From positions 7,109-71,108 of the forward strand of contig JAUWOR010000010.1 of assembly GCA_030612025.1 (NCBI GenBank): a DNA stretch of 64,000 nucleotides, given 5' to 3'. Each line of letters opens with the position of its first letter. Position 1 is the first letter of the stretch. The translations under genes were made by a program, and so were the position numbers. Below, piece by piece: positions 1,065 to 50,603 of this stretch. A model generated the notes under the pieces. The model did no database searches. It was not told the DNA's origin and saw nothing but the letters and a program-made list of their open reading frames with translations. This DNA comes from Dehalococcoidia bacterium (lineage in GTDB: Bacteria > Chloroflexota > Dehalococcoidia > GIF9 > AB-539-J10).

Positions 1065-1203
1065 AGAGGGGCAGCCTGATTTAAGGCAGGCTTTAAACAA
1101 CCTTGAGTTTACCAGAAACAAATCGGAAAACCTGAATCTGAAGAAGGTCGACTTCGGGTTGAGGCTTAGAATAAGTAAAAATTTGAAAGGAGAACTAAAT
1201 CGA

Positions 1204-4200
1204 ATGAGTAAAACAATAAGTTGGCCTGTTAGGGTAACTTACATATTTATTGCCCTGGCATTGGCCTTGAGCCTGGTGTTGGTAGCAATACCAGCTAAGA
1301 CCGACGCTGACCCAGGCCTGACCAAGTGGAGCAAGGTGACCACCCCCAGCGAGGAAGATAAAGTCATCGTGCAGAATGCTGATGTTATCAGCTTCGCTGC
1401 CGGGGCCACCGGTGATGTGATATACGCCGTTCTGGATGGCGTGTACGACTGGGACGGTACAGCCTGGGTTGAAGGCGGCGCTACTGGTAATGTAGAGGAT
1501 GTCCTCGAGGATGGCTTCGGCGACGCCGTATTCAAATCCGAGGACGCCGGTGTGACCTGGGACGACATCACCGATGAGGTACAGGAAGAGGGCATGATGG
1601 CCCCCATGATGGTGGAGGTGGCTCCCGACGATGACGACTTTGCCTTCGTGACCGGCTACGGTGACACAAATGACGATGGTGTCATCGAGCCCAAGGTTGA
1701 TGACGCTACCATGGTAATCGGCTCTGATGACGGCGGCAATGACTTCTCCGACATGGTCTTCACTGCCACTACAGAGCGGATTCTATGTATAGCAGTGGCC
1801 CCTGAGGCAGACGACGCATTCAACGTTGCTGTGGGCACCGACGCTGGTTCACTTTACCGCTATAAAGTCGGCGGGACCTTCGGTGGCGCATGGAAGGACA
1901 CCATCACCTATGATGGTTGGGATACCGGCTCTGCCGGTGCAACCACTGCGGTTGTCGCTGTAGCCTTCTCCCCCAACTTCGCTGGTGATGACACCGTCGT
2001 GGCTATTACCACCGATGGAAACAACACCTACCAGCAATCGGGTATATGGGGAACAACCAAAGCCTGGAATAACATAGCTGGCGATCCATTTCCCTCCAAC
2101 GCAGTCCGGATAATGGACGCCCCACCCTACGTGGGCATCTATAATATCGGTTACCAGGAATGGGATCTCCCGGCAGGTATAGCTATGCCAGAGGACTTCA
2201 CCGGCTATGACTCCGGACTACGACACAACTGGGTCTACCTGAACTACGATGCCGATGACAGTCCCAGTTTTGTTCCGGCAAGCTTCAAGACCGCCTTTGA
2301 TGAGGTCGGCCAGGTATTCAGAATCAAAGGCAGCACAGTAAAGTACGCTGGTATCCGCTGTGAGCCCTGGGATACCTCCACAACCTACCCCTTGATAGCC
2401 AGCATCTCAATGTATGGCGAGATAGAGGATGGTAACCTGATGGTAGGTTTGACCGGTCAAACAGACTGTTGCAAGGGCGTACAGGTTTACCGCACCAGCG
2501 AATGGCCCATAGACTACTGCTGTCCGCAGTGGTCCTCAGCCAAGAAACCACCCACGGGACAGGCAAACTGTTTGGTGAGCTATGTCGCCGGTGGAGACAA
2601 GGCATACGCAGCCACCAGCGAATGCTCCACCACTGGACTCCCGTACGACGAGAGCGCATTCTCCCTGAGCGAGGTAGAGGAAGTGGGCAAGTACTGGAAT
2701 CAGCCTAGTCTGGTTGACACCTTCATAGACTTCCTGTCTGATGTAGCGGTCAATCCTGGCTGTGGCACCATCTACCTCTTCAGCGTCAACGACCACGCCA
2801 GAGACTGTGGCTGCGACAGCGTGTGGAGCAGCACCGATGATGGCGACAGCTACCTCAGGGTATTCTGCAAGTCATTGACAAATGATTTTGGTCTTATCCG
2901 CACCGCTCCCGAGGAGACAGAGGAGGTTCTCACTGTTTACCTGGTTGACCAGGGCACCAAGGTCATTTACTGGAACGATGACAGCGGCCTGACCAACTGG
3001 TCAAATAGGAAAGCCTCTACTCTGGACAATGTCTGGGATCTCGCAGTTGAGAGCGAAGACACCATCTATGCGCTGTCCGCCAACGGCAAGGTAAGCACAT
3101 CCGCCAAGCATGGTGGACCAGGTTCCTGGAGTTCAGCCAAAGATGCCAAAGTCAACGATGGTCACTCCATAGTCTGCCGCGACGGGCATGTTCTGGTCGG
3201 CGGCACGGCTGGCAAGGTCGGTTACTCCGATGATTCTGCGTCCAGCTTCACCAAGCTGGATGACATTGGCGATGGACTTGTCCATTGCGCCTTCGACACT
3301 TACTTCGACGAGAACGACTATGTTTACGCCGCGATAAGCGGAGCCGATAGCGGAGTTTACCGCACCACCATAGCTGATGCCGACTTTGAAGATATGGATG
3401 CATGGACTACCGTCGATTACTTCGGCGTAGTGACCGAGCTCAGTAAGGATGGCAATCCTAAGACTAAAGCCGCCAATGGCGGTGTTCTCTATGCCGTTTA
3501 CTACGATGGCGCTGGCAGTGGTGTAGCTCGACAGCTCAGTCCAGCCGCGGCAACATGCTGTGGCGACTTGAGCTGGGATTACCTCACCGCCAAGCTGGAT
3601 GCAGATGCAGCCTTCACCCTTGAGCCCACTGCGCTCAAGATCTGCGGCTGTCTCACCTCCGCCACCAACAGCAACCTGTGGGCAATCGACAACGACGACT
3701 ACCAGATGTCCGACGGCAAGGATGGCACCCCGTGGGTCTACGAGGACTGCTTCGGCAAATTTGGCGTAGAACTCACTGCTGTTGGCGATGGCGATATGGT
3801 GGCTTCCGACCCCTGTGAATGCGCCAATGAGAAGTTCGTCCTCGAGTGGGAGCGCCTGTGCAACGAGTGTGAATACGATATTGACATCTCCTTGAACAGT
3901 GCTTTCACTCAGATAGTCCTTGACGAAGGGAACATTATGGTCCAGTACCCAAGCTTAGCGGGAACAGTGGCCTATGACCCGCCCAAGAACGCAGAGCCCA
4001 GCGTGGTAATCTGGGAGGGCGCCATAGACTGCAACACCACCTACTACTGGAGAGTGAGAACTCGCTATGCTGAGACTACCGAGATAATCCGGAGCTTCTG
4101 GTCTGACACCTGGAGCTTCACCGTTGAAGCCGGTCCTACTGTGGCCATTAATTTGATAGCTCCGGAGCCCAACCAGCTCAATGTGCCGATAACCAATGTT

Positions 4201-4617
4201 GGCTTCACCTGGTCGTCGGTTGCTGATGCTGACAGCTATGACTTCGTCCTATCAGCCAACGCTGACCTGTCCAGTCCCATAGAAACCAAGACAGGGTTAA
4301 CCGGTACTGCCTACACTTATGCTGGAAACCTGGATTACGACACTGCTTACTTCTGGCAGGTAACGGCAATGAAGGATGGTAATGTCTTCTCCGAGAGTGA
4401 CGTTAGCACCTTCTACACGATACCTGCGGCGGTATACACCTGCCCACAATGTGGCTTGACCTTCCCCACCGAAGCAGCTCTGAAGGCACACATTGCTGAG
4501 GCGCACCCAGCTCCACCACCGCCTGTAACTCCAGCCTGGGTATGGGTAGTTATCGGCCTCGGCGCTGTTCTGGTGATCGTGGTCATAGTGCTCATCTTCA
4601 GAACACGGCGGGTGTAA
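1204..4617 (+). CDS. Giant cell-surface protein (~1137 aa): N-terminal signal/anchor, Cys-rich ectodomain, two FN3-like modules (YYWRV..W, YFWQV), juxtamembrane C2H2 zinc finger, Pro-rich linker, C-terminal TM anchor
   Basis: SD AAAGGAGAA 9 nt before ATG 1204 (ORF track starts at 1159); hydrophobic N-terminus; C-terminus YTCPQCGLTFPTEAALKAHIAEAH then PAPPPP then 23 hydrophobic residues then RTRRV; FN3-like motifs shared with the 5698 protein. Confidence 0.7.
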   Translation: MSKTISWPVRVTYIFIALALALSLVLVAIPAKTDADPGLTKWSKVTTPSEEDKVIVQNADVISFAAGATGDVIYAVLDGVYDWDGTAWVEGGATGNVEDVLEDGFGDAVFKSEDAGVTWDDITDEVQEEGMMAPMMVEVAPDDDDFAFVTGYGDTNDDGVIEPKVDDATMVIGSDDGGNDFSDMVFTATTERILCIAVAPEADDAFNVAVGTDAGSLYRYKVGGTFGGAWKDTITYDGWDTGSAGATTAVVAVAFSPNFAGDDTVVAITTDGNNTYQQSGIWGTTKAWNNIAGDPFPSNAVRIMDAPPYVGIYNIGYQEWDLPAGIAMPEDFTGYDSGLRHNWVYLNYDADDSPSFVPASFKTAFDEVGQVFRIKGSTVKYAGIRCEPWDTSTTYPLIASISMYGEIEDGNLMVGLTGQTDCCKGVQVYRTSEWPIDYCCPQWSSAKKPPTGQANCLVSYVAGGDKAYAATSECSTTGLPYDESAFSLSEVEEVGKYWNQPSLVDTFIDFLSDVAVNPGCGTIYLFSVNDHARDCGCDSVWSSTDDGDSYLRVFCKSLTNDFGLIRTAPEETEEVLTVYLVDQGTKVIYWNDDSGLTNWSNRKASTLDNVWDLAVESEDTIYALSANGKVSTSAKHGGPGSWSSAKDAKVNDGHSIVCRDGHVLVGGTAGKVGYSDDSASSFTKLDDIGDGLVHCAFDTYFDENDYVYAAISGADSGVYRTTIADADFEDMDAWTTVDYFGVVTELSKDGNPKTKAANGGVLYAVYYDGAGSGVARQLSPAAATCCGDLSWDYLTAKLDADAAFTLEPTALKICGCLTSATNSNLWAIDNDDYQMSDGKDGTPWVYEDCFGKFGVELTAVGDGDMVASDPCECANEKFVLEWERLCNECEYDIDISLNSAFTQIVLDEGNIMVQYPSLAGTVAYDPPKNAEPSVVIWEGAIDCNTTYYWRVRTRYAETTEIIRSFWSDTWSFTVEAGPTVAINLIAPEPNQLNVPITNVGFTWSSVADADSYDFVLSANADLSSPIETKTGLTGTAYTYAGNLDYDTAYFWQVTAMKDGNVFSESDVSTFYTIPAAVYTCPQCGLTFPTEAALKAHIAEAHPAPPPPVTPAWVWVVIGLGAVLVIVVIVLIFRTRRV

Positions 4618-4992
4618 TTACACCCTCACCTCAATCCCCTCCCTTCAAGAGAGAGGAAAGGGGACTCCAAAAAGGGGCGGCTAAAAGCCGCCCCTTTTTC
4701 TTTCTCCCTATAATCATAGTGGCGGGGTTCATCCCCGCCATATGGCGTATTATGCCCCTATACCTCGGTCGGGGACAAGCCCCAACCCTACATTTGGTAA
4801 TATAGTCGTAGTGCGACCCTTCAGGGTCGTGCAATTTACCTGGGCACGAGGCTTAAGCCTCGCACTACAAAGTTCTGCCCAATGGCTGGCGCCTAATGAC
4901 TATTTTTGTCATTGCCAGTCGCGCCCTTCTTTGTCATTGTGAGGAGCCTGATTTATCAGGCACAGTCTCGCCCAATAAATTGGGCAACTACA
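4618..4992. repeat. Composite intergenic repeat cluster: family C (4618..4665), family E/F double hairpin GTAGTGGCGGGGTTCATCCCCGCC..GGGGACAAGCCCCAACCCTAC (4717..4791), REP-B (4808..4868), family D half-sites (4906..4945), partial REP-A (4945..4992)
   Basis: Each unit recurs elsewhere in the window; E/F recurs inverted at 40638..40691 and E alone at 5534..5560. Confidence 0.65.
4674..4703 (+). terminator. Rho-independent terminator
   Basis: GGGGCGGC-TAAAA-GCCGCCCC stem-loop followed by TTTTTCTTT directly after stop of the 1204..4617 gene. Confidence 0.75.
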
Positions 4993-5328
4993 TTTTTTAA
5001 TTTGACCCCGCAGCCCAGCTATGTTAGGCTTACAGTCTATATGTCAAAGAACCTTGAGGAAGGCCGCAGGTGGCTAGCTCAAGCTCAAAGGGATTTGGCT
5101 GATGGAGGATAAGGTAGCTAAACAGGTGTTTTAAATATGCAACATCAATCTTGAAAAACGTGGAGAGATTGCTAACCAAATAGAACAATATTGCCGAGAA
5201 ATAGTAAAGGAATTCAATCCGCATCAGGTAATCTTGTTTGGCTCCTTTGCCACTTTATCCCAGAAAAGGCAATTTTTACCATTTACTTTTTGGGGGTGTT
5301 TTCGTTTATAATAGTGGAGGTTAAAAAT

Positions 5329-5610
5329 GTAGTGCCAGGCTTTAGCCTCGTGCAGGATGGTAAATGGAAAAGGGCACGCCCCTGAAGGGTCGCACTACGA
5401 GATTTTATGAGCAAAGCGAAGGAACTCGACGAAGCAATCTCCATGAGTGCTCGGCCACCGAGATTGCCGCGCTTCGCTTGCAATGACAGGTGGGGAAGCT
5501 GACAAATAACTACGGAATGTAGGAGGGAATAATCGTAGTGGCGGAGTTTATCTCCCCGACCCTCACCTAGCCTCTCCCTTGAAGGGAGAGGAACAAGGTG
5601 AGGGTGATAA
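5329..5610. repeat. Intergenic repeat cluster: REP-B (5329..5398), family D half (5461..5500), family E hairpin (5534..5560), family C hairpin (5557..5610)
   Basis: Sequence identity to the other copies listed. Confidence 0.65.
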
Positions 5611-5697
5611 AAAGGATTAAGAAAGTAAGATTTAGCTTCGCTAAATGGATAATAAGGAACCACTTAGGAAAGAAAAATTAAATAGGAGGATTGTTAA

Positions 5698-7368
5698 ATG
5701 AAGTTATTGTCTCGACTAATTATCGCTCTGGTCATCTGCCTTATGGCCATTCCCGTGCTGGCTACTCCGGTAGAGGCCCATCCAGGCTTCAGCCTTAGAA
5801 ACACCACGAGCTATACTGGCCTTGACAGGGATGAGGGCTATATAGGGGATGAGGTAAGGATATATGGTTCGTGGGATGAGACTCATGGCCGGTATATCTA
5901 CATCTACTACGAACTATATGGCGAGGATGAAGAGGATTGGCATCACGAGAAGGTAGGCTATGAGGAATACGATGATACGAACGAGACCTACTCTTTTGAC
6001 TACGATCTTGAGATACCAGAAAGCTGCTCTGGAGTGCACGAAATTCTAATCTGCGATGATGATGACCCCGATGAGGATGTTGACACCCTGGAGTTCACTG
6101 TCTATCCCTCAATAGAGATAGATGAAAGTGAAGGACCAGCCGGGACCGAGGTTGAGGTGACAGGATTTGCCTGGGATGAGGATGAGAGTGAGATCGAGAT
6201 AAGGTTTTATCTGGAAGACCCTGATGATGACTACGATGATGATGACCTATATGAGGTGGTATGGCCTGTAGAGGGCGAGAGTGGGGATATCGAGGTTGAT
6301 GACTATGGTAGCTGGGAAGATGTTACCTTTGAGGTGCCCCATGCCAGTAAGGGAGACCATTGGATATATGCCGTGGGGGATGAGTCTGATGATATTGAGG
6401 ATGATAAAATCAAGGGAGTAGAATTTGAGGTTCTGCCGGGAATAAGCCTGGATAAAGAATCCGGCGGTTTTGGTGAAACTATAACCGTGACTGGCAGCGG
6501 ATTTGAGGAGGACGAGACCAGAATCAAGATATTGTTCGATGGCGATGCAGTAAAGGAGGATATTGAGGCTGATGATGATGGCATATGGGAGGCAACTTTC
6601 GAGGTGCCCGAGGCTGCCAAGGGCAAATACGATGTGACCGCTGAGGGAAGAAAGACCGATAAAGAAGACATCGAGGAGGTGGAATTTGAGGTAGTGCCGG
6701 GCTTGGTGCTGTCTCCCACTGAAGGGCATGTGGGCACAAGCCTAACCATCAGCGGCGGTGGCTTCCTAGCTAATAAATCGGTAACCATCACCTACGATGG
6801 AGTGACCAAAGGCAGCGTCACCACCAATAGCAAAGGCAGCTTTTCCGGTATTAGCTTTGAAGCCACACATACCCAGACAACGCACACTGTAGAACATCCT
6901 GTAGTAGCTACCTATGATACTACTACACTTAGCACCAAGTTCATTATGGAATCAACGGCGCCAGCTAAGCCTACGCTCAGCTCACCTGTCAATGCCAGCA
7001 GAGTGGGACTCTTCGGCAAGCAAACTCCTACATTCACCTGGTCGGCAGTGACCGATGACAGCGGGGTCAGCTATAATCTCCAAATAGGAACCAGCGCTGA
7101 TTTTGCCCAGGTGCTAATATCTAAGACAGGGTTAACTGAGGTCACCTATACCTTAGCCGGCGCAGAAGCCCTAGACTATGGCAGCTATTACTGGAGGGTA
7201 AAGGCCATAGATGGCGCTCAAAACGCTAGCGACTGGACTACCGCCTACTCCTTTAAGTCTGCGCTTTTGCCTTTATGGGCCTTTATTGCTATAGTGGCTC
7301 TAATAGTGGTGCTCATTGGCGCCCTGATTTTTGTCTTTGGCATCAGAAAAAGGGCACCATATGATTGA
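5698..7368 (+). CDS. Acidic cell-surface protein (556 aa): signal peptide, D/E-rich repeats with IPT/TIG-like beta-sandwich units (EFEVxPG...TxTGxGF), C-terminal FN3-like module and TM anchor
   Basis: SD AGGAGG before ATG; signal peptide MKLLSRLIIALVICLMAIPVLA; repeated EVEVTGFAWDEDE / EFEVLPGISLD / EFEVVPGLVLS units; C-terminus YYWRVKAIDGAQNASDW then TM, same architecture as C-terminus of the 1204 gene. Confidence 0.7.
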   Translation: MKLLSRLIIALVICLMAIPVLATPVEAHPGFSLRNTTSYTGLDRDEGYIGDEVRIYGSWDETHGRYIYIYYELYGEDEEDWHHEKVGYEEYDDTNETYSFDYDLEIPESCSGVHEILICDDDDPDEDVDTLEFTVYPSIEIDESEGPAGTEVEVTGFAWDEDESEIEIRFYLEDPDDDYDDDDLYEVVWPVEGESGDIEVDDYGSWEDVTFEVPHASKGDHWIYAVGDESDDIEDDKIKGVEFEVLPGISLDKESGGFGETITVTGSGFEEDETRIKILFDGDAVKEDIEADDDGIWEATFEVPEAAKGKYDVTAEGRKTDKEDIEEVEFEVVPGLVLSPTEGHVGTSLTISGGGFLANKSVTITYDGVTKGSVTTNSKGSFSGISFEATHTQTTHTVEHPVVATYDTTTLSTKFIMESTAPAKPTLSSPVNASRVGLFGKQTPTFTWSAVTDDSGVSYNLQIGTSADFAQVLISKTGLTEVTYTLAGAEALDYGSYYWRVKAIDGAQNASDWTTAYSFKSALLPLWAFIAIVALIVVLIGALIFVFGIRKRAPYD

Positions 7369-7385
7369 GAAGGCTGTTTAAAAAT

Positions 7386-7435
7386 GTAGTTGCCCAATTT
7401 ATTGGGCGACCGTGCCTGATGAATCAGGCAACTAC
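7386..7435 (-). repeat. REP family A element (inverted orientation)
   Basis: GTAGTTGCCCAATTTATTGGGCG...CCTGATGAATCAGGCAACTAC. Confidence 0.8.
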
Positions 7436-7479
7436 GAAATATCTTGGGGAAGCGGCACTACATGATGAGGTTTGAAAAT

Positions 7480-7529
7480 GTAGTTGCCCAATTTATTGGG
7501 CGGCCGTGCCTGATAAATCAGGCAACTAC
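7480..7529 (-). repeat. REP family A element (inverted orientation)
   Basis: Second copy 45 bp from the first, forming an inverted/direct REP pair. Confidence 0.8.
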
Positions 7530-7540
7530 AAAAATTTGGG

Positions 7541-7698: not shown

Positions 7699-7769
7699 GG
7701 GGGAGGGGTTGGAATGACAAGAGAACTTATATAGTGTGGGAGAAAATAGATTAAAATTAAGGAGGAAAA

Positions 7770-8945
7770 ATGAAATTAGCAGTTATTGGACTTGGGCAAT
7801 GTGGCTGTCGGATTGCTGACAATTTCGCCCGGCTCAACATCAAGGCACATGCCGAACGCAAGGTAACCATATCCCCCATCGTTATTGGGGTAAACACGGA
7901 CCAAGCGGACTTAACCGGGCTAAGGTTTATCAAGAAGGATTATATGCACCGCATACTCATCGGCTTGCGCCAGACATTGGGACATGGAGTGGGCAAGATA
8001 AATGAGCTGGGCGCTGAGTTAGCCCGGGAGGATGGCGATAAGGTGATGGATGCCATGAAAACCGAGCCAAGGTTTTATGAGACGCACGCCTTTTTGCTCA
8101 TCGCTGGCGCTGCTGGTGGCACAGGCTCAGGCGGCCTACCAGTAATTGCCAGGATGATTAAGGAGAGATACCTCAACAAGCCAGTTTATGCCCTTATTGT
8201 TCTCCCCTTTGAACATGAGCAATTCAGCGAGGCAAGGAGTGTATACAATAGCGCTACCTGCCTTAAATCTACCTATGACTTAGTGGATGCCATCTTTCTG
8301 GCTGATAACCAGAGATATGTCAGAAAGGATGCCAGCCTGGTTAATAACATGGAAAGGATAAACCGGATGATCGCCGAGCCCTTCTATGACCTGATGTGCG
8401 CTGGCGAGGTAACCAAGCGTAAGTATGTCGGCGCCAGAACGATAGATGCCGGGGATTTGATCGCCTCTCTGGAAGGCTGGACAACCATTGGCATCGGGAG
8501 AACTGAACTCCCCTCCCTTCGCTTTCCCTGGGAGATAAGAAAGAAACATTTCCGCGAGAAGGCTGTGGAAAGCTTCAGAGGGTCGCAGGCCCTGGATGCC
8601 ACCGTATCCGACCTTTCCATTACCTGCAACCCTAAGGATGCTGCCAAGGCTTTGTATATTATGGCTGGCCCAGCTAAAGAAATGAATATGGACATGATCA
8701 AGAGCGTGAGCAATTACATCAGTGAAATTGCCCCCAATGCCGTAATCAGAGGTGGCGATTTCCCCGGAGAAAAGCATTTCATTGATGTCACCTTGATATT
8801 ATCCCAGTTGTCTTTTGTGCCCAAGATAAAAGACTTTTACGAGACGTCCGTCCAATATGGACAGGAACATAAAGGACAGATAGAGGAAACACAGAAGAGA
8901 ATCCAGGCCTTAAGTGACCTAGGCAAGGAATTGCCTAACTTGTAG
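7770..8945 (+). CDS. Tubulin/FtsZ-superfamily GTPase, non-canonical (CetZ/tubulin-like) paralog, 391 aa
   Basis: SD GGAGGA before ATG; N-terminal G-box VIGLGQCGCRIADNF (GQxG as in CetZ/tubulin, not GGGGxN of FtsZ); T2-like NTDQADL; tubulin signature AGAAGGTGSGG; T7-like TIDAGDL; RGGDFPGE near C-terminus; no FtsZ C-terminal FtsA/ZipA-binding peptide. Confidence 0.75.
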   Translation: MKLAVIGLGQCGCRIADNFARLNIKAHAERKVTISPIVIGVNTDQADLTGLRFIKKDYMHRILIGLRQTLGHGVGKINELGAELAREDGDKVMDAMKTEPRFYETHAFLLIAGAAGGTGSGGLPVIARMIKERYLNKPVYALIVLPFEHEQFSEARSVYNSATCLKSTYDLVDAIFLADNQRYVRKDASLVNNMERINRMIAEPFYDLMCAGEVTKRKYVGARTIDAGDLIASLEGWTTIGIGRTELPSLRFPWEIRKKHFREKAVESFRGSQALDATVSDLSITCNPKDAAKALYIMAGPAKEMNMDMIKSVSNYISEIAPNAVIRGGDFPGEKHFIDVTLILSQLSFVPKIKDFYETSVQYGQEHKGQIEETQKRIQALSDLGKELPNL

Positions 8946-8973
8946 TAAGCAATCCTTTGACCTATTTATGCTT

Positions 8974-9024
8974 GTAGTTGCCCAATTTATTTGGGCTACC
9001 GGGCCTGATAAATCAGGCAACTAC
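8974..9024 (-). repeat. REP family A element (inverted orientation)
   Basis: GTAGTTGCCCAATTTATTTGGGCTACCGGGCCTGATAAATCAGGCAACTAC. Confidence 0.8.
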
Positions 9025-9062
9025 GAAATATTTCAGGAGGAGTGCCGGGGGTTATCCCCGCC

Positions 9063-11033: not shown

Positions 11034-11085
11034 GTAGTTGCCTGATTTATCAGGCCCTTATCGCCCCATAAATTGGGCAACTACT
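11034..11085 (+). repeat. REP family A element
   Basis: GTAGTTGCCTGATTTATCAGGCCCTTATCGCCCCATAAATTGGGCAACTAC. Confidence 0.8.
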
Positions 11086-12352: not shown

Positions 12353-13170
12353 GTAGTTGCCTGATTTATCAGGCTTATCGCCCAATAAATTGGGCAACTA
12401 CATTTTTAAACACCCTCATTTGTTAACACACGGTATTATTCAATATTTCGTAGTTGCCTGATTTATCAGGCCTTTCTCGCCCAATAAATTGGGCAACTAC
12501 AATATCCTTTCCACTAGTGGATTGTTTTGAATATACTCTCGGATCTTTGCCAGCGCTTTATCATCTCTAATCACATGCTCGTAGTAATTTGGTTGCCATA
12601 GCTTAAATCGAACTTGCTTTGTGGTTACCGCTTTCAACCTTCTAACAATCTCAGCTAGCTTAAGTTGGCAGTCTTCCAAAACCAATATTAGATGAATATG
12701 AGAAGGCATTATTTGGTAGTAATCTAATTTTACTCCGCTTATCTTGTAGGGTAATTGTTCGATAAGTTGGGCAACTATTTCCTTGTTTTCGCCCGTCAGA
12801 TAAGGTCTTCGGTAATTAGTGCAAATTGTTATGAAATAAAAGCCGTCTGAGGAGTAATCATAATCTTTTAAGCGTATATTTTTAACCGCTCTCATCCTTA
12901 ACCTTCCATCATTCTGATACAACCTGTAGTTGCCTGATTTATCAGGCCTTTCTCGCCCAATAAATTGGGCAACTACGTTTTTAAACACCCTCATTTGTTA
13001 ACACACGGTATTATTCAATATTTCGTAGTTGCCTGATTTATCAGGCCCTTATCGCCCAATAAATCGCACTACATTTTTAAACACCCTCATTTGTTAACAC
13101 ACGGTATTATTCAATATTTCGTAGTTGCCTGATTTATCAGGCCCTTATCGCCCAATAAATCGCACTACGT
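12353..13170. mobile_element. REP-RAYT-REP unit: RAYT gene flanked by REP-A doublet (12353..12401, 12450..12500) and REP-A triplet (12926..12976, 13025..13072, 13123..13170) in ~98-bp tandem periodicity
   Basis: REP copies separated by identical 48-bp linker ATTTTTAAACACCCTCATTTGTTAACACACGGTATTATTCAATATTTC; encloses IS200-like Y1 transposase gene. Confidence 0.8.
12497..12895 (-). CDS. REP-associated tyrosine transposase (RAYT, IS200/IS605 TnpA-like)
   Basis: HuH motif SHIHLIL and catalytic YYEHVIRD tyrosine; N-terminal YDYSSDGFYFITICT; start likely ATG 12895 (RBS GGAAGG), the longer 12994 start would read through a REP. Confidence 0.8.
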   Translation of the reverse strand: MRAVKNIRLKDYDYSSDGFYFITICTNYRRPYLTGENKEIVAQLIEQLPYKISGVKLDYYQIMPSHIHLILVLEDCQLKLAEIVRRLKAVTTKQVRFKLWQPNYYEHVIRDDKALAKIREYIQNNPLVERIL

Positions 13171-15298: not shown

Positions 15299-16966
15299 TT
15301 AGTCCAGACCAACAATAATTCTCTCCACCTTGGTGATGTCCAAGCTGTTGACCACGCCATCTCCATTGGCATCAGCGCCGGGAGTTTCGGCATCGAGTCC
15401 AACAATAATCCTCTCGACCTTGGTGATGTCAAGGCTATTGACCACGCCATCTCCATTGGCATCGCCAGGCAGGATTGAGGAGACGTGGACTGAATCGCCT
15501 GTCCAGGTTGCCTCTATTTCATTTGCCCCATTATCGCCCAGAAAGCCGTTTTGCAAACCTATGTCACTGCTGTCACCCTCAGCGCCGATAACATGGAAGT
15601 GTAGTTCTGCCAGGGTGCCGGAGCCAGTGACGCCAGCTAACCCTGGGACGTTCTGAACTATGGTGCATGACCCGCCATCTTCCAGATTCCAGATGTCAAC
15701 CGGTATCGCCGTCCCATCTATCTCACCGGCAGTCACATCATCCAGTCGAAGCACCGTGTCGTCGAAGACAACATCGTAGTTAGCAGCATCGAAGTTCTCC
15801 ACCCCATCAATGTTAACCCTGGCAATAAAATCGCTACCAGCGCCTACCTCGGCTGGAGCACTAATGCTCACTGAAGGAGCAACACCGGTGGTCACAGTTA
15901 GAGTTACCGGCACCGTCACTTCTGGCTCATCGGGGTCGTTGCTTAATATTACTATATTGGCAGTGTAAGTGCTGCCGAGGCCAGTGGTATCGAAGGTAAC
16001 CGTTATGTCATCTTCCTCTCCTGGCGGCACCATGCCTGATTTGGGCTCCTCATCCAGCCAGGGGCAGTCCTCGGCTTCTCCTCCCACATACTTGCTCAGC
16101 ACCACATCATCAATAAAGGCTCCCTGACCGCTAGAGCCAGGCATAACATCACTGAAAGTGAACAATATCCACACTTCAGGCTGCCCGCAGACATTCCCCA
16201 AATAGGGAATCTCTGTGAAGTCCAAAGATTTTTCCATCCAGTGCCGGTAATGTCCGGCGATGGTCTTTCCACCGAAGTATTTTCCATCAATTGACGCTGC
16301 CCAGAGGAGGTAATCGCCAGGAATGTTATACGGCTCCACCTGTATTCCGGCCGAGTCCAACCACAAATGGAACCTCAGCTCGGCATCAGTAGCATCAGCT
16401 AGGCTGAAGGGGCCGTACACCATCGCGGAAGACATTCTGTAAGGAAACCAAGCTGGGGGGTCGACCCCATCTGTACCACTCTTGGCGCAGTAGGCACTCC
16501 ATGATCCGTTGTGGGGGTTGTAGCTGTCCTTTCCCCAGTAGGCATCCACCTGCGACTGAGAATACACGTCCCACTTAGACCCTGGAAATACCCCCTCAAA
16601 ATCCTCGGTCATTATGTTCTGCCAGCCACTGCCAAATTTGCCAGTTTCCTCTGGCTCAACCGTCTTGCCCTCTAGCGGAATTTCCAAGACCATGCTACCT
16701 GGCTTCAGGAGCAGGTTCTCAGCCTTCCCTGTGCTAGCCCCACCTGTTGTTTCCGTGTCGCTGAGAGTGTAGTTCAGCTCCGCATTGCCAACATTGCCTA
16801 TATTTAGAGTGTAGTCCTGGGTTGTGTCTGGCGGCAGCGTTTTCTCGAAGCTGGTGGGAGAAACCGTGATGTCAGGCGCGTCAGGCTGTGCGCCGGCTGT
16901 GGTGGCCCAATCCTGGGCATAATTATCCGACCATTGCTCACTCCCTTGGACATAGGACCAGGCCCC
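15299..16966 (-). CDS. C-terminal portion of frameshifted S8 subtilase gene: PKD/CARDB-like beta domains and C-terminal type-I dockerin (two DANGDGVVNSLDITKVERIIVGLD repeats)
   Basis: Shares the WSYVQGSEQWSDNYAQD segment with the upstream repeat unit of ORF 16938..19688; reading frames join at poly-C tract 16963..16966. Confidence 0.65.
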   Translation of the reverse strand, partial: GAWSYVQGSEQWSDNYAQDWATTAGAQPDAPDITVSPTSFEKTLPPDTTQDYTLNIGNVGNAELNYTLSDTETTGGASTGKAENLLLKPGSMVLEIPLEGKTVEPEETGKFGSGWQNIMTEDFEGVFPGSKWDVYSQSQVDAYWGKDSYNPHNGSWSAYCAKSGTDGVDPPAWFPYRMSSAMVYGPFSLADATDAELRFHLWLDSAGIQVEPYNIPGDYLLWAASIDGKYFGGKTIAGHYRHWMEKSLDFTEIPYLGNVCGQPEVWILFTFSDVMPGSSGQGAFIDDVVLSKYVGGEAEDCPWLDEEPKSGMVPPGEEDDITVTFDTTGLGSTYTANIVILSNDPDEPEVTVPVTLTVTTGVAPSVSISAPAEVGAGSDFIARVNIDGVENFDAANYDVVFDDTVLRLDDVTAGEIDGTAIPVDIWNLEDGGSCTIVQNVPGLAGVTGSGTLAELHFHVIGAEGDSSDIGLQNGFLGDNGANEIEATWTGDSVHVSSILPGDANGDGVVNSLDITKVERIIVGLDAETPGADANGDGVVNSLDITKVERIIVGLD

Positions 16967-19688
16967 GGTAGTAATAGGTTGTGCTTGGCACCAGTCCTGT
17001 GTCTGATTTGCCGGTTGCAGTGCCGAAATAAACTTGTGTGCCGTCGTCCCTATTTGCTGGGTAACCTCCTTGTTTTCTCTGTATTTTTGTCTTCTGAGCT
17101 CCGGCACCTTTAGTCCAGGACAAACTTATCTGGGTGGTACTGGCTGTGGTGGCGCTGAAGCTGGTTGGCGCATCGGGTTTGGTCAGGAAGCTTAACTCAG
17201 GGCCGCTGCCTGTGCCAGCACTGTTCTTGGCCTGTGCCCTGAAATAGTACTTGGTCCCTTTGTTAAGGCCAGAAATGTTTTCACTGAAGGACTGTCCGGT
17301 GGTTTTAGTTTCCACACTCCAGCCCGTGTAGGTGTAAGGCCCTCCTTGGGTGGTGCTGTAGCCAAACTGATACTGGCAGACTTCACCACCGTCATCGGTT
17401 ACCGCGCCGTGAAGAGTAGCTGTAGTCTCTTCAACAGAGGTGGCAGCATTTGTGGTTACCGTTGGCGCTCCTATTGATGTTGTGGTAGCCTGGTCTTGGG
17501 CATAGTTATCAGACCATTGTTCGCTTCCCTGGACGTATGACCAGGCTCGGTAATAATAAGTTGTCCCCGGCGTTAGTCCTGTATCAGATTTGCTGGTTCC
17601 TGTTCCGAAGTAAACCTCAGTGCCATCGTTTCTATTCGCTGGGTAGCTACTTTCTTTCCTCTGTATCTTTGTCTTCTGGGCACCAGCTCCCTTAGTCCAG
17701 GACAAATTTATCTGAGTGGTGCTGGCTGTGCTGGCGGTAAAGCTGGTTGGTTCATCAGGTTTGGTCAGGAAGCTTAGCTCAGAGCCACTACTGGTTCCAG
17801 CACTATTCTTGGCCTGTGCTCTGAAGTAATATTTAGTTCCCTTATTAAGGCTTGAAATAGCTTCGCTGAAGGACTGGCCTGTGGTTTTAGTTTCCACACT
17901 CCAGTCAGTGTAGGTGTACGGTCCTCCCTGGGTCGTGCCATAGCCAAAGCGATACTGGCAGGCTTCACCACCATCATTGCTTACCATGCCATTAAGGGTG
18001 GCAGAGTTCTCCTCTACCAAGCTTGCGGCATTGGTAGTCACCGTTAGCGCTGGTGAGGGTGTCGGCAAGTAAAGCCTGCCACTTCCATACAGGTTATCTT
18101 TCCCAGAAGCACCGAGAGCAACGGCATTCGTCTCAAGATAATTCTGTATTTGCTCCGGAGTGTAAGAGGGAAAGCGTTGCTTGACCAGCGCCGCCGCCCC
18201 TGCCCCATAAGGAGCCGAAGCTGACGTGCCATAGAAATTCTCTGCTCCATAGGTGGAGGTGCTCACGCCATCAGGAGCAACCAAATCGGGTTTTGTCCTA
18301 GCGTCCACCGTTGGCCCCTGAGAACTGAATGATTCCAGCGTTGTAGGGTCGTCCCAGAACACAGCTCCCATGGTCATAGCGCTGGGCGAGTCAGCGGGTA
18401 CACACAGGCTGCCAGCCGCAACCTGATATTGTAGATTGTAGCGTGTGCGTGTCAGGTGGAAGTTGACTACTTCCGGTTCACCCCAGGCAGCTATTAGTAT
18501 GTGATAGATTCCTGTGTATGTAGGGGTATACGACAAAAATTCGTACGGGTCGTCATTACCATCTTGTATCCTGCAAGAGCACGCAACTAGAAAAGAGTTG
18601 TTATCAAGCAACAATAAATCATAGTCATTGCCAGAATTGCCCCAGGGATCATCCCATTTGAGGCTAACTACAATGTCATTTCCGCTGTTGGCAGTGATCG
18701 CATTAGACTCATCAAAGGGTGATTGGTTAAATTCGTGGATGTCATCCATATCACTATCTACAAAGTCTCCCTGCCAGTGACGCTGGGCATAGTTCCCCGC
18801 CGCCTGAGACCACAGGATGCAGGCAGCTCTGGCATCATCCACCATCTGACAGAACAGTCCAGTGCCATCCCCTGGCCCTCCTGGGAGCCAATCCATGGAG
18901 CAGGAGATAACATCAACCCCCTGAGCTATAAGCCAGTCAACAGCATTACCCATCTCGACACTACTGTCAAAGTTGGCCAGATAAAACTGGGCGTCGGGAA
19001 CAAGGTCGTACACGATCTCGGCACAGGCAGTGCCGTGTACAGATGTTCCCTCATTTCCATAGCTTGGAGCCCACCAACTTGCAACCGTGGCAGGCAATTC
19101 CGTACCCAAGAGAGAATCATATCCAGAGAAACCACCATCCAGAATGCCGACCTTCACTCCGGTCCCCGTAAAGCCAGCACTATGCCAGTCATCGGCGTTA
19201 ATCAGGCTTACACCCTCACTGATAACTGATGGTATGGGTTTGAAAGGCAAGCGCACCAATTTAACACTAGCATCATCAGCTAATGCCTCAACCTGAGCGA
19301 CGGGTATCCCAACCTGTACCAGATCCTTATAGCTAGTTTCTACATCGGCACCGAGAGCCTCGGCGATACGCATAACTTCATCCTCCTGCCCACCCACAGC
19401 CTCAATAACCACCCTGGTCCAGTCACCTTCCACATCTATGCCAGATTTTTGAGCAAAAGCGCTCAAATCACCTTTTTCGTAAGCCGCAACCAGTTGGTCC
19501 AGCCGCGACCCCAGCTTAGGATGTCCCTTAGTAATCTCTGGGAGGGCATTAAGATTCGATAAGATGTCATCCTCATCATCAGCCGAAGCACTTCCAGTAG
19601 CCGCACCTCCTATAACCGAAAAGGCTAAAGCGAGGCATAAAATGAGGTTTAGAATTCTCGCCGACCACCCGTTCTTCATGTTTAACAT
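16938..19688 (-). CDS. Subtilisin-like S8 serine peptidase with signal peptide and two tandem ~195-aa FN3-like repeat units (N-terminal portion of a disrupted ~1460-aa gene)
   Basis: Signal peptide; S8 catalytic region (HGTACAEIV..., GTSASAPY); tandem units each ending YYFRAQAKNSAGT..SFLTKPD..YYYR; ORF terminates YYYRGLVLCPRE* where repeat unit 1 reads YYYRAWSYVQG. Confidence 0.75.
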   Translation of the reverse strand: MLNMKNGWSARILNLILCLALAFSVIGGAATGSASADDEDDILSNLNALPEITKGHPKLGSRLDQLVAAYEKGDLSAFAQKSGIDVEGDWTRVVIEAVGGQEDEVMRIAEALGADVETSYKDLVQVGIPVAQVEALADDASVKLVRLPFKPIPSVISEGVSLINADDWHSAGFTGTGVKVGILDGGFSGYDSLLGTELPATVASWWAPSYGNEGTSVHGTACAEIVYDLVPDAQFYLANFDSSVEMGNAVDWLIAQGVDVISCSMDWLPGGPGDGTGLFCQMVDDARAACILWSQAAGNYAQRHWQGDFVDSDMDDIHEFNQSPFDESNAITANSGNDIVVSLKWDDPWGNSGNDYDLLLLDNNSFLVACSCRIQDGNDDPYEFLSYTPTYTGIYHILIAAWGEPEVVNFHLTRTRYNLQYQVAAGSLCVPADSPSAMTMGAVFWDDPTTLESFSSQGPTVDARTKPDLVAPDGVSTSTYGAENFYGTSASAPYGAGAAALVKQRFPSYTPEQIQNYLETNAVALGASGKDNLYGSGRLYLPTPSPALTVTTNAASLVEENSATLNGMVSNDGGEACQYRFGYGTTQGGPYTYTDWSVETKTTGQSFSEAISSLNKGTKYYFRAQAKNSAGTSSGSELSFLTKPDEPTSFTASTASTTQINLSWTKGAGAQKTKIQRKESSYPANRNDGTEVYFGTGTSKSDTGLTPGTTYYYRAWSYVQGSEQWSDNYAQDQATTTSIGAPTVTTNAATSVEETTATLHGAVTDDGGEVCQYQFGYSTTQGGPYTYTGWSVETKTTGQSFSENISGLNKGTKYYFRAQAKNSAGTGSGPELSFLTKPDAPTSFSATTASTTQISLSWTKGAGAQKTKIQRKQGGYPANRDDGTQVYFGTATGKSDTGLVPSTTYYYRGLVLCPRE

Positions 19689-23230: not shown

Positions 23231-24481
23231 CATTTTTAAACACCCTCCAACTTTCCTATATGACCGCCGCCAAGTCCATTCTTCTAAAGCTAAAGCACCG
23301 GCTAAAGCCAGTGATGCGGCCAAAGCTGATAACACGGCGATTAAGGCAGGATGTAGCCATACCATCTCAGCCTGAACCACCGGAGCTATCAGTGTTTCTC
23401 GCCAGCGGCTATCAAGCCCGTCTATGTCAAAACCATAAACCTGGGTTAAAGCTCCATCGTAGGTGTCACCTTCCTTGAAGAGGGTTAATAGATTGAGCAT
23501 TTTATTTTCGCCATAATTGCGGAGAAGGTATTCCACCAGGCTATAACTCTGAGCATAGGAGAGATAAGCTTTTTCTGGTTCAGCGGAAAACGGACTGCAC
23601 AAGCTGCGGACAGAAATTAGCTTACCCTCAGAGATAGCCTTGCCCAAGTAGGCTCGGAAATAAGGGTCGAGCTCCCCCTCGTTATACATAGCTAAGCCCT
23701 CATCAAGCCAGGTGGGCAGTTCGCCATAGGGACTGAAAGTTGCCTGGTGAACGACTAAATGCGTCAGCTCGTGAACTAAAGCTTTTTTGCCCCAATCAAG
23801 TTGATTTGGTGAAATGCCGATGGCAATTATGCCAAACTCAGTAAAAGCAACACCCCCGGTCCACTCCCGGGGGAAAATCATGGCTCCTTGCAAGTCTCCG
23901 GCTGAAGCATAGATATATATTCTAATAGGCTTCGAGATTGCTTCGCCACTGTGCGCCTCGCAATGACTGATAGGCTTCAATCTAGCAAGCCCTTGCTCAC
24001 AAGCATCTATTAATTCCTGAGCAAAAGAATCGTCTCCTTCATACCAGAAAAGGGTTAAATCACTCTTATTTAGGCTTTGCCAATCATAGCGGCCATCATC
24101 AAAATGCACTTCGGCTGGAGGAGTTTCAAGCTTATTTCCAGCAGCATCTCGCATCGTCCACCAATATGATATAGCTGCCCCAGGAGGCAAGCTCGATTTT
24201 CTCATATCCCAAACCCAACTAGTTTCTACTCTGGTTGCTGGAGCAAAGTCAGGCCACCCCTCGCTGGTAACCTGGGCGTAATTCATCCTATCCACCTGAT
24301 AATGAAGGCGAGCATCAACAATATCAGCCTCACTCTCAGCTTCGATAGTGAAGACAAGCGCAATGGGAAAATGCACCTCTACGCTGCTATCCAAGACTGC
24401 GATGCCACTATCCGCCTTGACCAGGGAAGGGGTGAATAGTAAGAAAAGAAGTAGAGCTACTAAGCTAATACGCTTAATCAT
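23228..24481 (-). CDS. Secreted/membrane-anchored putative zinc metallopeptidase (HEXXH), 417 aa
   Basis: Signal peptide, HELTHLVVHQ motif, C-terminal TM; start overlaps prfB stop by 4 nt (operonic). Confidence 0.45.
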   Translation of the reverse strand: MIKRISLVALLLFLLFTPSLVKADSGIAVLDSSVEVHFPIALVFTIEAESEADIVDARLHYQVDRMNYAQVTSEGWPDFAPATRVETSWVWDMRKSSLPPGAAISYWWTMRDAAGNKLETPPAEVHFDDGRYDWQSLNKSDLTLFWYEGDDSFAQELIDACEQGLARLKPISHCEAHSGEAISKPIRIYIYASAGDLQGAMIFPREWTGGVAFTEFGIIAIGISPNQLDWGKKALVHELTHLVVHQATFSPYGELPTWLDEGLAMYNEGELDPYFRAYLGKAISEGKLISVRSLCSPFSAEPEKAYLSYAQSYSLVEYLLRNYGENKMLNLLTLFKEGDTYDGALTQVYGFDIDGLDSRWRETLIAPVVQAEMVWLHPALIAVLSALAASLALAGALALEEWTWRRSYRKVGGCLKM

Positions 24482-25562
24482 TTCTCTTCGCCTACTTTGG
24501 AACGAAGATAGGCAGTGATAAATCCATCCAAATCTCCATCCAATACAGCCTCAGCATTGGCTACCTCATAGTTAGTGCGATGGTCTTTTACCATTTTATA
24601 GGGATGAAGGACATAGCTTCTAATCTGACTCCCCCACTCAGCCTCGATACGCTTACCCTTAAGTTTCGCCTTTTCCTCCTCTTTCTTCACGCGCTCTAGC
24701 TCGAGGAGGCGAGTATAAAGGATTCTCAAGGCAGTCTCCTTATTCTGATGTTGAGACCTCTGACTCTGACAGGCAGCTACTAACCCGGTAGGCAAGTGAG
24801 TTATCCTAACAGCGCTGCTCGTCTTCTGCATATGTTGCCCACCAGGACCACTGGACCTAAAGGTATCTATTCTTAAATCTTCTGGGCTGATTTGGATATC
24901 CAATTCCTTCTCTACTTCAGGAAGAACTTCTACTAAGGCAAAAGAGGTATGCCGAGCATGATCAGCATCAAAGGGAGAAAGGCGAACCAACCTATGAACT
25001 CCATGCTCACATTTAAGATAGCCATAGGCGTAATCCCCTTTAACTTCCACGATGGCACTTTTGATGCCAGCTTCCTCACCAGGAGAGACATCCAATATTT
25101 CAGCTTGATAATCATGCCGCTCTGCCCACCTGAGGTACATCCGGAGTAACATATTTACCCAATCCTGAGACTCCGTGCCACCAGCGCCACTATGAAGGGC
25201 AAGCATGGCATTTCTGGCATCGTAATCACCACTGAAAATCAACTGGCTCTCCAATCGCTCAAACTGAGAGGCCAATTTCTTCAACTCCTGCTGCATCTCC
25301 GCCTTAAGGGAATAATCACCTTCCTCAACAGCTAGAGTTGCCATATCATAAAGGTCAGCGACTTCCCTCTCCAGCTGGCGCCAATTATGGACTAAATTTT
25401 TCTTCACCCCGAGCTGACGCATAATAGCTTGAGCTTTAGCCGAGTCACGCCAGAAATCGGGACTAGCTGATTCTGCCTCTACCCGGGCAATCTCCTTCTC
25501 TTTACCAGGAATGTCAAAGATGCACCATTATATCTGAGATTCGGCGGTGTAAAGCTTCTAAA
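24478..25562 (-). CDS. prfB: Peptide chain release factor 2 with programmed +1 frameshift
   Basis: ORF0 MEEERENLEALHRRISDIMVHL then CTT TGA C shift site (25493..25499, minus strand) joining frame of the 314-aa ORF; GGQ and SPF motifs present. Confidence 0.9.
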
Positions 25563-39884: not shown

Positions 39885-39886
39885 TT

Positions 39887-40426
39887 TTATTTATCCACCA
39901 AGAGCATTTTCCTTAACGCCGCTATGCCATTATATTGCAAAGCTTTCACTGTACCTTCGTTTTTCCCCAAAACTTTAGCTGCCTCTGCGACTGAAAGCTC
40001 ACTTCCAAAACGGAGTGAGATTACCTCCCGCTGAGCCGGAGATAATTTCTTTACATTGTTAATCAATTCCTCAATTTCAAGCTCCCGTTCAGCCATAAGC
40101 GCTGGATTTGACCCACTAACTAAGGTTATATCGTCCTCCAAAGCTACCTTTTCCACTCTACCTTGCTTTCTTAAATAATCTATTACCTGATTATGGGCAA
40201 TGCGAAATAGCCAAGCCACGAAAGGTAAATTCCGCCACTTGTAAGAGCCAATCGCCTCCAAAGCTTTAACAAATACCTCCTGAGTTAAATCCTCAGCTTC
40301 GGCTTGATTCCCCACTCTGAGGTAAACATAACGATAAATCCTATCGAAATGTTCCTCGTAAAGTTGAGCAAAGGCTTCACTCTCTCCCTTTACTGCTCGG
40401 GAAACTACATCTTTCTCAATAAACAT
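39887..40426 (-). CDS. ECF-type RNA polymerase sigma-70 family factor
   Basis: Region 2 ([25 protein letters not shown]) and region 4 ([13 protein letters not shown]...[15 protein letters not shown]); start ATG 40426 (ORF track 40498 probably too long). Confidence 0.8.

Positions 40427-48185: not shown

Positions 48186-50603
<2,418 letters not shown>

Follow-up and report, generated by a model that had tools for sequence, protein, structure and literature searches.

Does a bacterial chromosome encode a cytoskeletal GTPase of the CetZ type, and what might such a protein do there? The question is raised by a 64,000-nucleotide stretch of a Dehalococcoidia genome (contig JAUWOR010000010.1), referred to here as the window, which carries an open reading frame (ORF) for a protein of 391 amino acids (aa) at positions 7770-8945. 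A preliminary description of this ORF had likened its product block by block to archaeal CetZ cell-shape proteins and had proposed either an acquired cytoskeletal module or a deep-branching bacterial tubulin family. We found that the protein very probably belongs to the CetZ-type (CetZ-like) branch of the tubulin/FtsZ superfamily, in a bacterial chromosome. The gene and its putative ribosome-binding site are as follows.

7770-8945, plus strand: cetZ-like gene, 391 aa, start codon ATG; Tubulin GTPase domain at aa 3-182 and CetZ_C at aa 189-360, followed by a helical C-terminal extension and a terminal peptide
7759-7765, plus strand: Shine-Dalgarno sequence AAGGAGG, read off the sequence, with the ATG 4 nucleotides (nt) downstream

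Results

Assignment to the CetZ family

In a Pfam search the window protein matched Tubulin (PF00091) with 105.6 bits and CetZ_C (PF21011) with 67.4 bits, each exceeding its gathering cut-off, which for the latter is 21.6. The ftsZ equivalog model TIGR00065 reached 52.7 bits, through the N-terminal domain only, against a cut-off of 295.2. When all PDB sequences were searched with phmmer, CetZ1 (4b46) was matched at 4e-47, CetZ2 (4b45) at 2e-25 and Methanosaeta CetZ (3zid) at 4e-14, and FtsZ proteins scored 7e-9 or worse. In addition, we built a profile from 40 members of the bacterial clade described below and ran it against the PDB sequences. It aligned with CetZ1 from end to end (6e-78; residues 1-389 against 1-393), followed by CetZ2 (3e-60) and 3zid (3e-33), and these three structures took the top three places, about 60 orders of magnitude over FtsZ; the best FtsZ reached 8e-19 (N-terminal domain only), RepX/TubZ 1e-15, BtubB 3e-14 and tubulins about 1e-13. 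CetZ_C was matched by 37 of the 40 clade members, FtsZ_C and Tubulin_C by none of the 40. The proposed block-by-block resemblance to CetZ was thus upheld in pairwise and profile alignments, and the TIGR00065 score and the lack of FtsZ_C bear out the distinction from bacterial FtsZ. The idea of a deep-branching bacterial tubulin family is not supported, as the scores to CetZ are far better than those to tubulin or BtubAB and the protein appears to lie at or inside the CetZ boundary (see below).

An AlphaFold (AF2) model computed from 95 diverse sequences had a predicted local distance difference test (pLDDT) score of 89 and a predicted template modelling (pTM) score of 0.88; an earlier model from a 19-sequence alignment (78-98% identity) had a pLDDT of 43 and was discarded. 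A Foldseek search of the PDB with the model returned CetZ1 first (E 8.5e-36, template modelling (TM) score 0.93, root mean square deviation 1.9 Å), then CetZ2 (TM-score 0.92) and Methanosaeta CetZ, and below these FtsZ proteins (0.76-0.85) and TubZ (0.70-0.73). At the C-terminus the model has two long helices (aa 351-366 and 368-386) and then a short free tail.

GTPase motifs, M-loop and C-terminal tail

The motifs were located in the translation and compared across 61 full-length Dehalococcoidia homologs.

7788-7805, plus strand: T1 loop GLGQCG (aa 7-12), of the tubulin/CetZ type GQxG and not FtsZ GGGGxN; GQCG at least 90% conserved in the 61 homologs
aa 42-44, plus strand: T2, NTD, read from the translation
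aa 71-82, plus strand: T3, GHGVGKINELGA, read from the translation
8115-8132, plus strand: T4, tubulin signature GGTGSG (aa 116-121), with G116 and G119 invariant in a 95-sequence superfamily alignment
aa 145-150, plus strand: T5, LPFEHE, read from the translation
aa 179-183, plus strand: DNQRY motif, read from the translation
8445-8456, plus strand: T7 loop DAGD (aa 226-229), with the predicted catalytic acidic residue D229 at the position of CetZ1 E218
8499-8555, plus strand: M-loop-like insertion RTELPSLRFPWEIRKKHFR (aa 244-262), with hydrophobic residues L247, F252, W254 and F261; a protruding, lower-confidence segment of the model
aa 327-334, plus strand: RGGDFPGE motif, read from the translation
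8925-8942, plus strand: C-terminal peptide KELPNL, family pattern [KR][DE][LI]Pxx[LF], after a helical charged linker

The motif blocks were conserved to at least 60% across the homologs, and to at least 90% at most positions. In a pairwise alignment with Haloferax volcanii CetZ1, D226 and D229 are the counterparts of D215 and E218, of which E218 is the T7 catalytic residue according to the literature; within the bacterial clade D229 is at least 90% conserved. In the sequence, every GTP-binding loop and the T7 catalytic acid are intact. The full tubulin/FtsZ motif set of the preliminary description, with its G-box GQCG rather than GGGGxN, was recovered loop by loop.

The M-loop-like insertion matches the long M-loop of CetZ1 in the profile alignment, its hydrophobic residues are invariant within the window-type clade, and its pLDDT in the model is 53-66. 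A C-terminal anchor peptide had been reported as missing. It is present: the ending [KR][DE][LI]Pxx[LF] was found in 62 of 62 Dehalococcoidia homologs with their own stop codon (64 were recovered, two being left out of the count for a contig end or a likely frameshift). The variants are KELPNL (window), KDLPTLE (close relatives) and KDIPSLL (sister clade), each after a variable, charged linker, and the profile alignment lays this peptide onto the CetZ1 tail ...DELES(LF). CetZ1 no longer forms rods when its conserved terminal LESLF is mutated, and the same is true of mutation at the hydrophobic tip of the long M-loop (bioRxiv 10.1101/2024.04.08.588506).

A bacterial host contig

Bacterial marker genes are distributed over the window.

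24478-25422: release factor 2 (RF-2)
29112-32425: dnaG-rpoD
37422-39005: DnaX
48186-50573: NAD-dependent LigA

RecO and an extracytoplasmic function (ECF) sigma factor are also encoded. Because the window genes are bacterial and the related loci are labelled Dehalococcoidia or Chloroflexota, the host contig is bacterial, and neither archaeal nor chimeric. The bacterial genome claimed in the preliminary description is confirmed, and none of the outcomes it had named beforehand as speaking against its proposal was seen, whether clustering with FtsZ, degeneracy of the motifs, or an archaeal or chimeric contig. An identical 391-aa protein is on record from an NCBI/ENA contig of 75 kb, and the same neighbour genes surround the cetZ-like gene on an ENA contig of 28 kb.

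Distribution, phylogeny and age

When a large protein database was searched with the window protein, at least 5647 clusters (90% identity) were matched at E ≤1e-5, and the top 120 matches were 78-100% identical and 391-393 aa long. A query from the sister clade matched at least 6351 clusters at 1e-20, most of them automatically annotated as 'cell division protein FtsZ'; in a library clustered at 50% identity, 65 clusters were found at E ≤1e-30. The gene occurs in at least 55 species-level Dehalococcoidia genomes, on contigs of up to 206 kb. The 55 loci are labelled as Dehalococcoidia, Dehalococcoidales, Dehalococcoidaceae or Chloroflexota metagenome-assembled genomes (MAGs), the exception being a 2.6-kb contig binned as candidate division WS1. 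All of the top 120 matches of the clade-2 query were MAGs, with no cultured carrier among them.

In a neighbour-joining (NJ) tree of 102 sequences, the Dehalococcoidia sequences and about 23 further clusters formed one clade (bootstrap 187/200), within which the window-type subclade was supported by 200/200. Deeper members of the clade have bacterial contexts, namely MacB/FtsX with two FtsH genes, or GntR with SBP_bac_5, and one clade member is NCBI MCL2706841.1 from a Dehalococcoidia bacterium; three genomic contexts and two NCBI names underlie the label 'bacterial' for the deep part of the clade. Elsewhere in the tree were the CetZ1/CetZ2 anchors, Thermococcus CetZ, a Nitrososphaerales protein, a Euryarchaeota MAG protein and a single Chloroflexota protein, P0187 (NCBI MFC1919407.1, Chloroflexota bacterium), which lies outside the main bacterial clade amid archaeal CetZ-like sequences. 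This placement hints at more than one inter-domain transfer and agrees with the remark 'paraphyletic' of Santana-Molina et al. (PMC9871819).

Brown & Duggin (PMC9856176) took the Thermococcales CetZ as the boundary of the CetZ family. The window clade grouped with Halobacteria CetZ1/2 inside this boundary in 128/200 NJ replicates and outside it in 28/200, in a distance-based test whose single outgroup was an E. coli FtsZ sequence. On these sequence data we lean towards a position inside the family boundary. The window protein is 31-33% identical to CetZ1-type sequences, for which Thermococcus CetZ reaches 34%, and the bacterial clade as a whole is about 30% identical to any archaeal CetZ.

The gene has a G+C content of 0.49, its codon usage correlates with the rest of the window at r = 0.77, which is mid-range among the window genes, and the ratio of non-synonymous to synonymous substitutions (dN/dS) against orthologs is 0.05-0.18. 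Since it occurs in so many species-level genomes, has host-like codon usage and is under strong purifying selection, it is an old, vertically maintained and apparently functional resident of a large Dehalococcoidia lineage and not a recent import. For the same reasons an isolated acquired module is not supported; the codon-usage and composition check that had been proposed for horizontal transfer gave a host-like gene.

A different setting was seen for a deep-branching relative of 418 aa (the P0145/P0290 cluster, 65 members). In loci L059 and L060 (7000-15000) its surroundings form an island with many resolvase, IS66, IS605 and group II intron sequences, and a conserved gene of 324-327 aa, without a Pfam match, stands immediately 3' of it. 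Such a locus may represent a CetZ-like module carried by a mobile element, by which the gene might spread horizontally.

Genes for surface proteins upstream of the cetZ-like gene

Two genes for predicted membrane proteins precede the cetZ-like gene on the same strand.

5698-7368, plus strand: upstream partner, 556-aa type-I membrane protein with a signal peptide, an acidic ectodomain of IPT/TIG and Ig-like repeats, a C-terminal transmembrane helix and the short cytoplasmic tail RKRAPYD
1159-4617 (likely start 1204), plus strand: further upstream envelope gene, 1152-aa type-I membrane protein with Asp-box-like motifs, a C2H2-like motif and a C-terminal transmembrane helix followed by RTRRV

The Ig-domain gene lies directly 5' of the cetZ-like gene, on the same strand, in 29 of 29 window-type loci with upstream flank (28 species-level genomes and the window's own source contig, L001), and in 10 of the 29 the gap between the two genes is only 33-45 bp. 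Its ectodomain is very acidic in the window (33% D+E). Partner identity falls to 37-40% where the CetZ-like protein keeps at least 74%, and the cytoplasmic tail pattern R[KR]R-x(1-4)-Y-[DY] is kept across the partner orthologs. The pair fits an operon with selected linkage, because the gaps are short, the adjacency holds in every locus and the tail is kept despite the divergence of the partner.

The 1152-aa gene was found upstream of the pair in 16 loci (L001 included), at a variable distance. Its orthologs are about 35% identical overall, and the C-terminus of about 28 residues, WVWVVIxIGAVLVIVVIVLIFRTRRV, is nearly invariant, which suggests a dedicated sorting or anchoring signal. The Asp-box-like motifs include SEDAGVTW. 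The family has 76 members, is confined to the lineage, and its distant members match Sortilin-Vps10/BNR. In D. mccartyi the S-layer protein carries the annotation of a BNR/Asp-box repeat protein (PMC6646388); no such name turned up among the 76 family members, all from uncultured lineages, and a possible link between the two would be based on the Asp-box-like motifs and weak Sortilin-Vps10 matches. A C2H2 zinc-finger-like motif, YTCPQCGLTFPTEAALKAHIAEAH (region aa 1093-1152), stands just before the transmembrane helix and is predicted to be extracellular, and one homolog bears the NCBI name 'C2H2-type zinc finger protein'.

The preliminary description had placed the gene beside two giant envelope proteins. 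Their adjacency and envelope type stand, each having a signal or anchor at the N-terminus and a transmembrane helix at the C-terminus, and the physical link to envelope genes is borne out by the Ig-domain gene; at 1152 and 556 aa, 'giant' was an overstatement. Between the two surface-protein genes there is a spacer of 1080 bp (4618-5697) in which, by eye, ORF fragments resembling HEPN/nucleotidyltransferase toxin-antitoxin remnants occur amid repeats. Downstream of the cetZ-like gene, PHO4, PhoU_div and AmmeMemoRadiSam genes are syntenic in about 20 species-level genomes with variable spacing, and the synteny comparison gave no sign of a functional link to it.

Repeats around the gene

Several compound palindromes resembling repetitive extragenic palindromic (REP) elements or miniature inverted-repeat transposable elements (MITEs), of the sequence GTAGTTGCCCAATTTATTGGGC...GCCTGATnAATCAGGCAACTAC, lie close to the gene.

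7385-7435, no strand: REP-like compound palindrome, copy 1, between the Ig gene and the cetZ-like gene
7479-7531, no strand: copy 2, between the Ig gene and the cetZ-like gene
8973-9025, no strand: copy 3, just 3' of the cetZ-like stop codon
214-235, 4946-4996, 11063-11084, 12380-12401, 12479-12500 and 12955-12976: other REP/MITE-like copies, intergenic

The 22-nt half-site has 9 copies in the window, against 0 expected; all are intergenic and lie within 1-13 kb, and the other 51 kb contain none. Further short repeat families (I1, I4, I6, D5, D6) were seen in the same spacers. The gene had been described as bounded by REP elements. The flanking palindromes are indeed there, and the sense of a cassette border is not borne out: because the orthologous gaps of 33-45 bp leave no room for such elements and repeats fill other spacers too, they are lineage-specific intergenic insertions or fillers and not cassette ends.

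Paralogs in a sister lineage

In a sister lineage (Dehalococcoidales/Dehalococcoidaceae MAGs) there are cetZ-like proteins that are 52-57% identical to the window protein. Their locus has the order gap, cetZ-a, two divergently transcribed genes, cetZ-b, dnaX-ybaB-recR...recO; relative to the match at 10001, the paralogs and the divergent genes extend from about -4.7 kb to +1.2 kb. The divergent genes between the paralogs encode coiled-coil proteins, one of about 170 aa and one of 650-820 aa with an acidic C-terminus (loci L034, L038, L041, L042, L044, L045 and L046); neither had a transmembrane helix or a Pfam family. No neighbour gene of the window was found next to this clade by tblastn, and inspection of its ORFs showed an architecture that differs from that of the window, where the genes between gap and dnaX (39060-40498) are those for the ECF sigma factor and a DUF5667 protein.

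One MAG, JAZDIU01, has two further cetZ-like copies. For one of these (L048, 10001-12613; the second copy in this MAG), a 472-aa protein with an N-terminal transmembrane helix and a weak DivIVA match is encoded 19 bp downstream, and it may be a membrane tether for its paralog. With a separate partner for each paralog, the family is thus comparable to the multi-paralog CetZ sets of Haloarchaea.

Other features of the window

Scans of the 64-kb window for tRNA genes and Rfam families gave no match. Another ORF of 391 aa (52782-53957, plus strand) was considered as a second tubulin-family gene and rejected, as it shows no relationship to CetZ. Its product begins with a signal-like N-terminus, followed by a long run of G-D-V/I-rich repeats and then several C-terminal transmembrane helices; the repeats look beta-helix-like (bactofilin-like in appearance), and the protein has no Pfam match. 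On the minus strand, two ORFs overlap as called (15299-17107 and 16938-19688): one protein has both a cohesin and a type-I dockerin domain, and its neighbour is an S8 subtilase of 916 aa that carries Fn3 repeats. These are modules of cellulosome-style assembly in a Dehalococcoidia genome.

Discussion

Proposed function and alternative explanations

The best explanation, which we consider probable, is that the gene encodes a chromosomal bacterial CetZ-type protein forming membrane-proximal filaments for the envelope or cell shape, with coupling through the Ig-domain protein. By analogy with H. volcanii CetZ1, the subunits would polymerise head to tail with GTP into dynamic filaments or sheets on the inside of the cytoplasmic membrane. 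Hydrolysis of GTP would be set off when a subunit's T7 loop enters the pocket of its neighbour. Docking would occur through the terminal peptide, the M-loop or both. The likely partner would be the putatively co-transcribed single-pass Ig-domain surface protein, whose short cytoplasmic tail could join the filaments to the surface layer. Such filaments would organise the envelope or cell shape and would run beside a canonical FtsZ-FtsA division machinery. CetZ1 polymerises with GTP and acts at the envelope (bioRxiv 10.1101/2024.04.08.588506), and proteins predicted to belong to the envelope or surface are likewise encoded near archaeal cetZ genes (PMC9856176). In Dehalococcoidales the dcw cluster and peptidoglycan are lost, the wall is S-layer-like and mraZ-mraW-ftsA-ftsZ is retained (PMC10608941). 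We regard this functional picture of GTP-dependent submembrane filaments that serve shape or the surface layer, separate from FtsZ division, as tentative, with the balance tipping slightly against it.

Several points weigh against this explanation. Polymerisation, localisation and a role in shape are carried over by homology from CetZ1, with which the protein shares about 30-33% identity, and the placement relative to the archaeal CetZ boundary has moderate bootstrap support (NJ with one outgroup). In the window the gap between the Ig-domain gene and the cetZ-like gene is 401 bp and holds two of the REP-like palindromes, other repeats and a terminator-like hairpin, which makes co-transcription of the pair there uncertain; a promoter and terminator scan showed no difference from shuffled sequence. 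The link to the Ig protein is based on adjacency within one lineage, so inherited synteny could explain part of it, and the sister lineage has other neighbours, either coiled-coil proteins or a DivIVA-like membrane protein. Finally, no second tubulin-family gene was found elsewhere in the 64-kb window, the only stretch of the genome searched.

If the protein were the organism's cell-division FtsZ, a divergent form that builds the Z-ring in a wall-less bacterium, the automatic annotation of many homologs as 'cell division protein FtsZ' by the NCBI and JGI pipelines would be correct; no canonical ftsZ was seen in the 64 kb searched. The tail DIPSLL/ELPNL also seems to resemble the FtsZ C-terminal peptide DIPxFL. 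We nevertheless think this very improbable: TIGR00065 scores far below its cut-off of 295, FtsZ_C is absent from all 40 clade members, the T1 loop is GQCG instead of GGGGxN, and the neighbours are surface proteins and PHO4/PhoU_div instead of ftsA or mraZ-mraW. The sister lineage has two paralogs, which is atypical of a bacterial division FtsZ, and canonical ftsZ-ftsA is kept in all high-quality Dehalococcoidales genomes examined in PMC10608941. Less probable still is a segregation tubulin for plasmid or phage DNA (TubZ/PhuZ/RepX type) within an integrated element delimited by the REP repeats. The repeats on both sides of the gene, a slightly higher local G+C content (about 0.50 against 0.45) and the position of the deep relative P0290, which has a conserved downstream gene, in an island of resolvase, IS elements and a group II intron all fit such an origin, but the synteny with chromosomal PHO4, PhoU_div and AmmeMemoRadiSam is stable in about 20 species-level genomes, the Pfam and NCBIfam scans of the window showed no adjacent TubR-like, integrase or replication genes, and the profile matches TubZ/RepX at 1e-15 compared with 6e-78 for CetZ1. 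Codon usage is host-like, and the repeats are absent at the orthologous loci with gaps of 33-45 bp.

An archaeal gene mis-joined into a bacterial contig by assembly or binning might be suspected from the archaea-specific status of CetZ in the functional literature (PMC11621097, PMC9856176) and from the metagenomic source. This is effectively refuted, as the same gene stands amid the same bacterial neighbours in dozens of MAGs assembled independently in different studies, on contigs of up to 206 kb, with bacterial genes within a few kb on both sides, codon usage typical of the window, and a clade of its own at about 30% identity to any archaeal CetZ. More weight, although we still hold it unlikely, should be given to a CetZ-like filament former with a role other than shape control, namely placing or building a particular surface or secretion complex, such as the Ig-domain and Asp-box proteins, or a cytoplasmic complex. 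The different conserved partners of the paralogs (Ig membrane, coiled-coil and DivIVA-like membrane proteins) would agree with this, as would the location of archaeal cetZ2 and Thermococcales cetZ near type IV pili or envelope genes, for which multifunctionality has been proposed (PMC9856176). Such a role is, however, compatible with membrane-proximal filaments coupled to the Ig protein and differs solely in the downstream read-out.

The explanation by envelope or shape filaments can be extended into an evolutionary scenario, which we put forward as speculative and rather unlikely. A Dehalococcoidales ancestor, after the loss of peptidoglycan and with an archaeal-style S-layer envelope, would have acquired, or retained and expanded, an archaeal CetZ, and the paralogs would have gained dedicated partners, giving here a transmembrane shape system in which the co-transcribed single-pass Ig protein couples the filament mechanically to the surface layer. 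If true, a bacterial CetZ-based shape system would be a functional replacement of the MreB-peptidoglycan elongasome.

Comparison with known systems

The presence of CetZ-like sequences in Dehalococcoidia is already known, and Pfam CetZ_C covers them. Santana-Molina et al. (2023; PMC9871819) devoted one sentence to them: Chloroflexota sequences match the CetZ C-terminal hidden Markov model at about 1e-10, and the Dehalococcoidia sequences, which are almost certainly the same proteins as ours, branch among CetZ-like groups that were termed 'sparse paraphyletic groups' and not analysed. Our finding overturns nothing, as the sequences are in that survey and the Pfam domain exists, and because the survey had noted them the surprise is lower than the preliminary description assumed. 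In contrast to 'sparse' groups, we see thousands of clusters at 90% identity in at least 55 species-level genomes, largely monophyletic and multi-paralog. In functional work on CetZ the family was still described as archaea-specific as late as 2024 (PMC11621097, PMC9856176), and our literature searches did not find a study of bacterial CetZ-like proteins. The present analysis adds that the bacterial clade is abundant and coherent, and describes its conserved tail, its paralog architecture and its conserved membrane-protein partner. The assignment also corrects a widespread mis-annotation, most homologs being labelled as FtsZ.

Bacterial FtsZ shares with the window protein the superfamily fold (TM-score 0.76-0.85), the GTPase loops and a linker that leads to a short, conserved peptide at the C-terminus; the window protein differs from it in an extra M-loop insertion and C-terminal helices, in lacking FtsZ_C and in having no dcw/ftsA context. 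BtubA/B of Prosthecobacter and TubZ/RepX provide precedents for non-FtsZ proteins of the tubulin superfamily in bacteria, probably obtained by horizontal transfer. Unlike BtubAB and the tubulins, the window protein has no Tubulin_C; BtubB and gamma-tubulin are matched at about 1e-14 in the N-terminal half only, the GQCG T1 loop is its only tubulin-like trait, and the paired A/B genes and bklc of the BtubAB system are absent from the locus. TubR and a centromere, as in TubZ/RepX systems, are likewise missing, and the context is a chromosomal core and not a plasmid.

The closest known system is CetZ1 of H. volcanii (PDB 4B46). The two proteins share the Tubulin GTPase and CetZ_C architecture, the GQxG T1 loop, GGTGSG and the acidic T7 residue, as well as a long hydrophobic M-loop and a charged helical linker with a short hydrophobic tail (ELESLF in CetZ1, KELPNL in the window protein). 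They differ in the bacterial host, in an identity of about 30-33% with a separate clade (187/200), in the T1 loop, which is GQAG in CetZ1 and GQCG, as in beta/gamma-tubulin, in the window protein, and in the tail, where a proline (D/E-L/I-P-x-x-L) gives the window protein an FtsZ-like look as well. A single-pass Ig-domain partner has not been reported for CetZ1; the 556-aa protein would be a simple candidate for a filament-to-surface linker. An archaeal host, the trait of the archaeal CetZ family that the window protein does not share, is a statement of distribution and not a molecular criterion. The hosts are alike in their envelope, which is of the S-layer type without peptidoglycan, and a large, conserved, multi-paralog CetZ-type family in abundant subsurface and sediment bacteria that share this archaeal envelope type offers a natural test of whether CetZ-type cytoskeletons track the envelope (S-layer, no peptidoglycan) rather than the archaeal domain.

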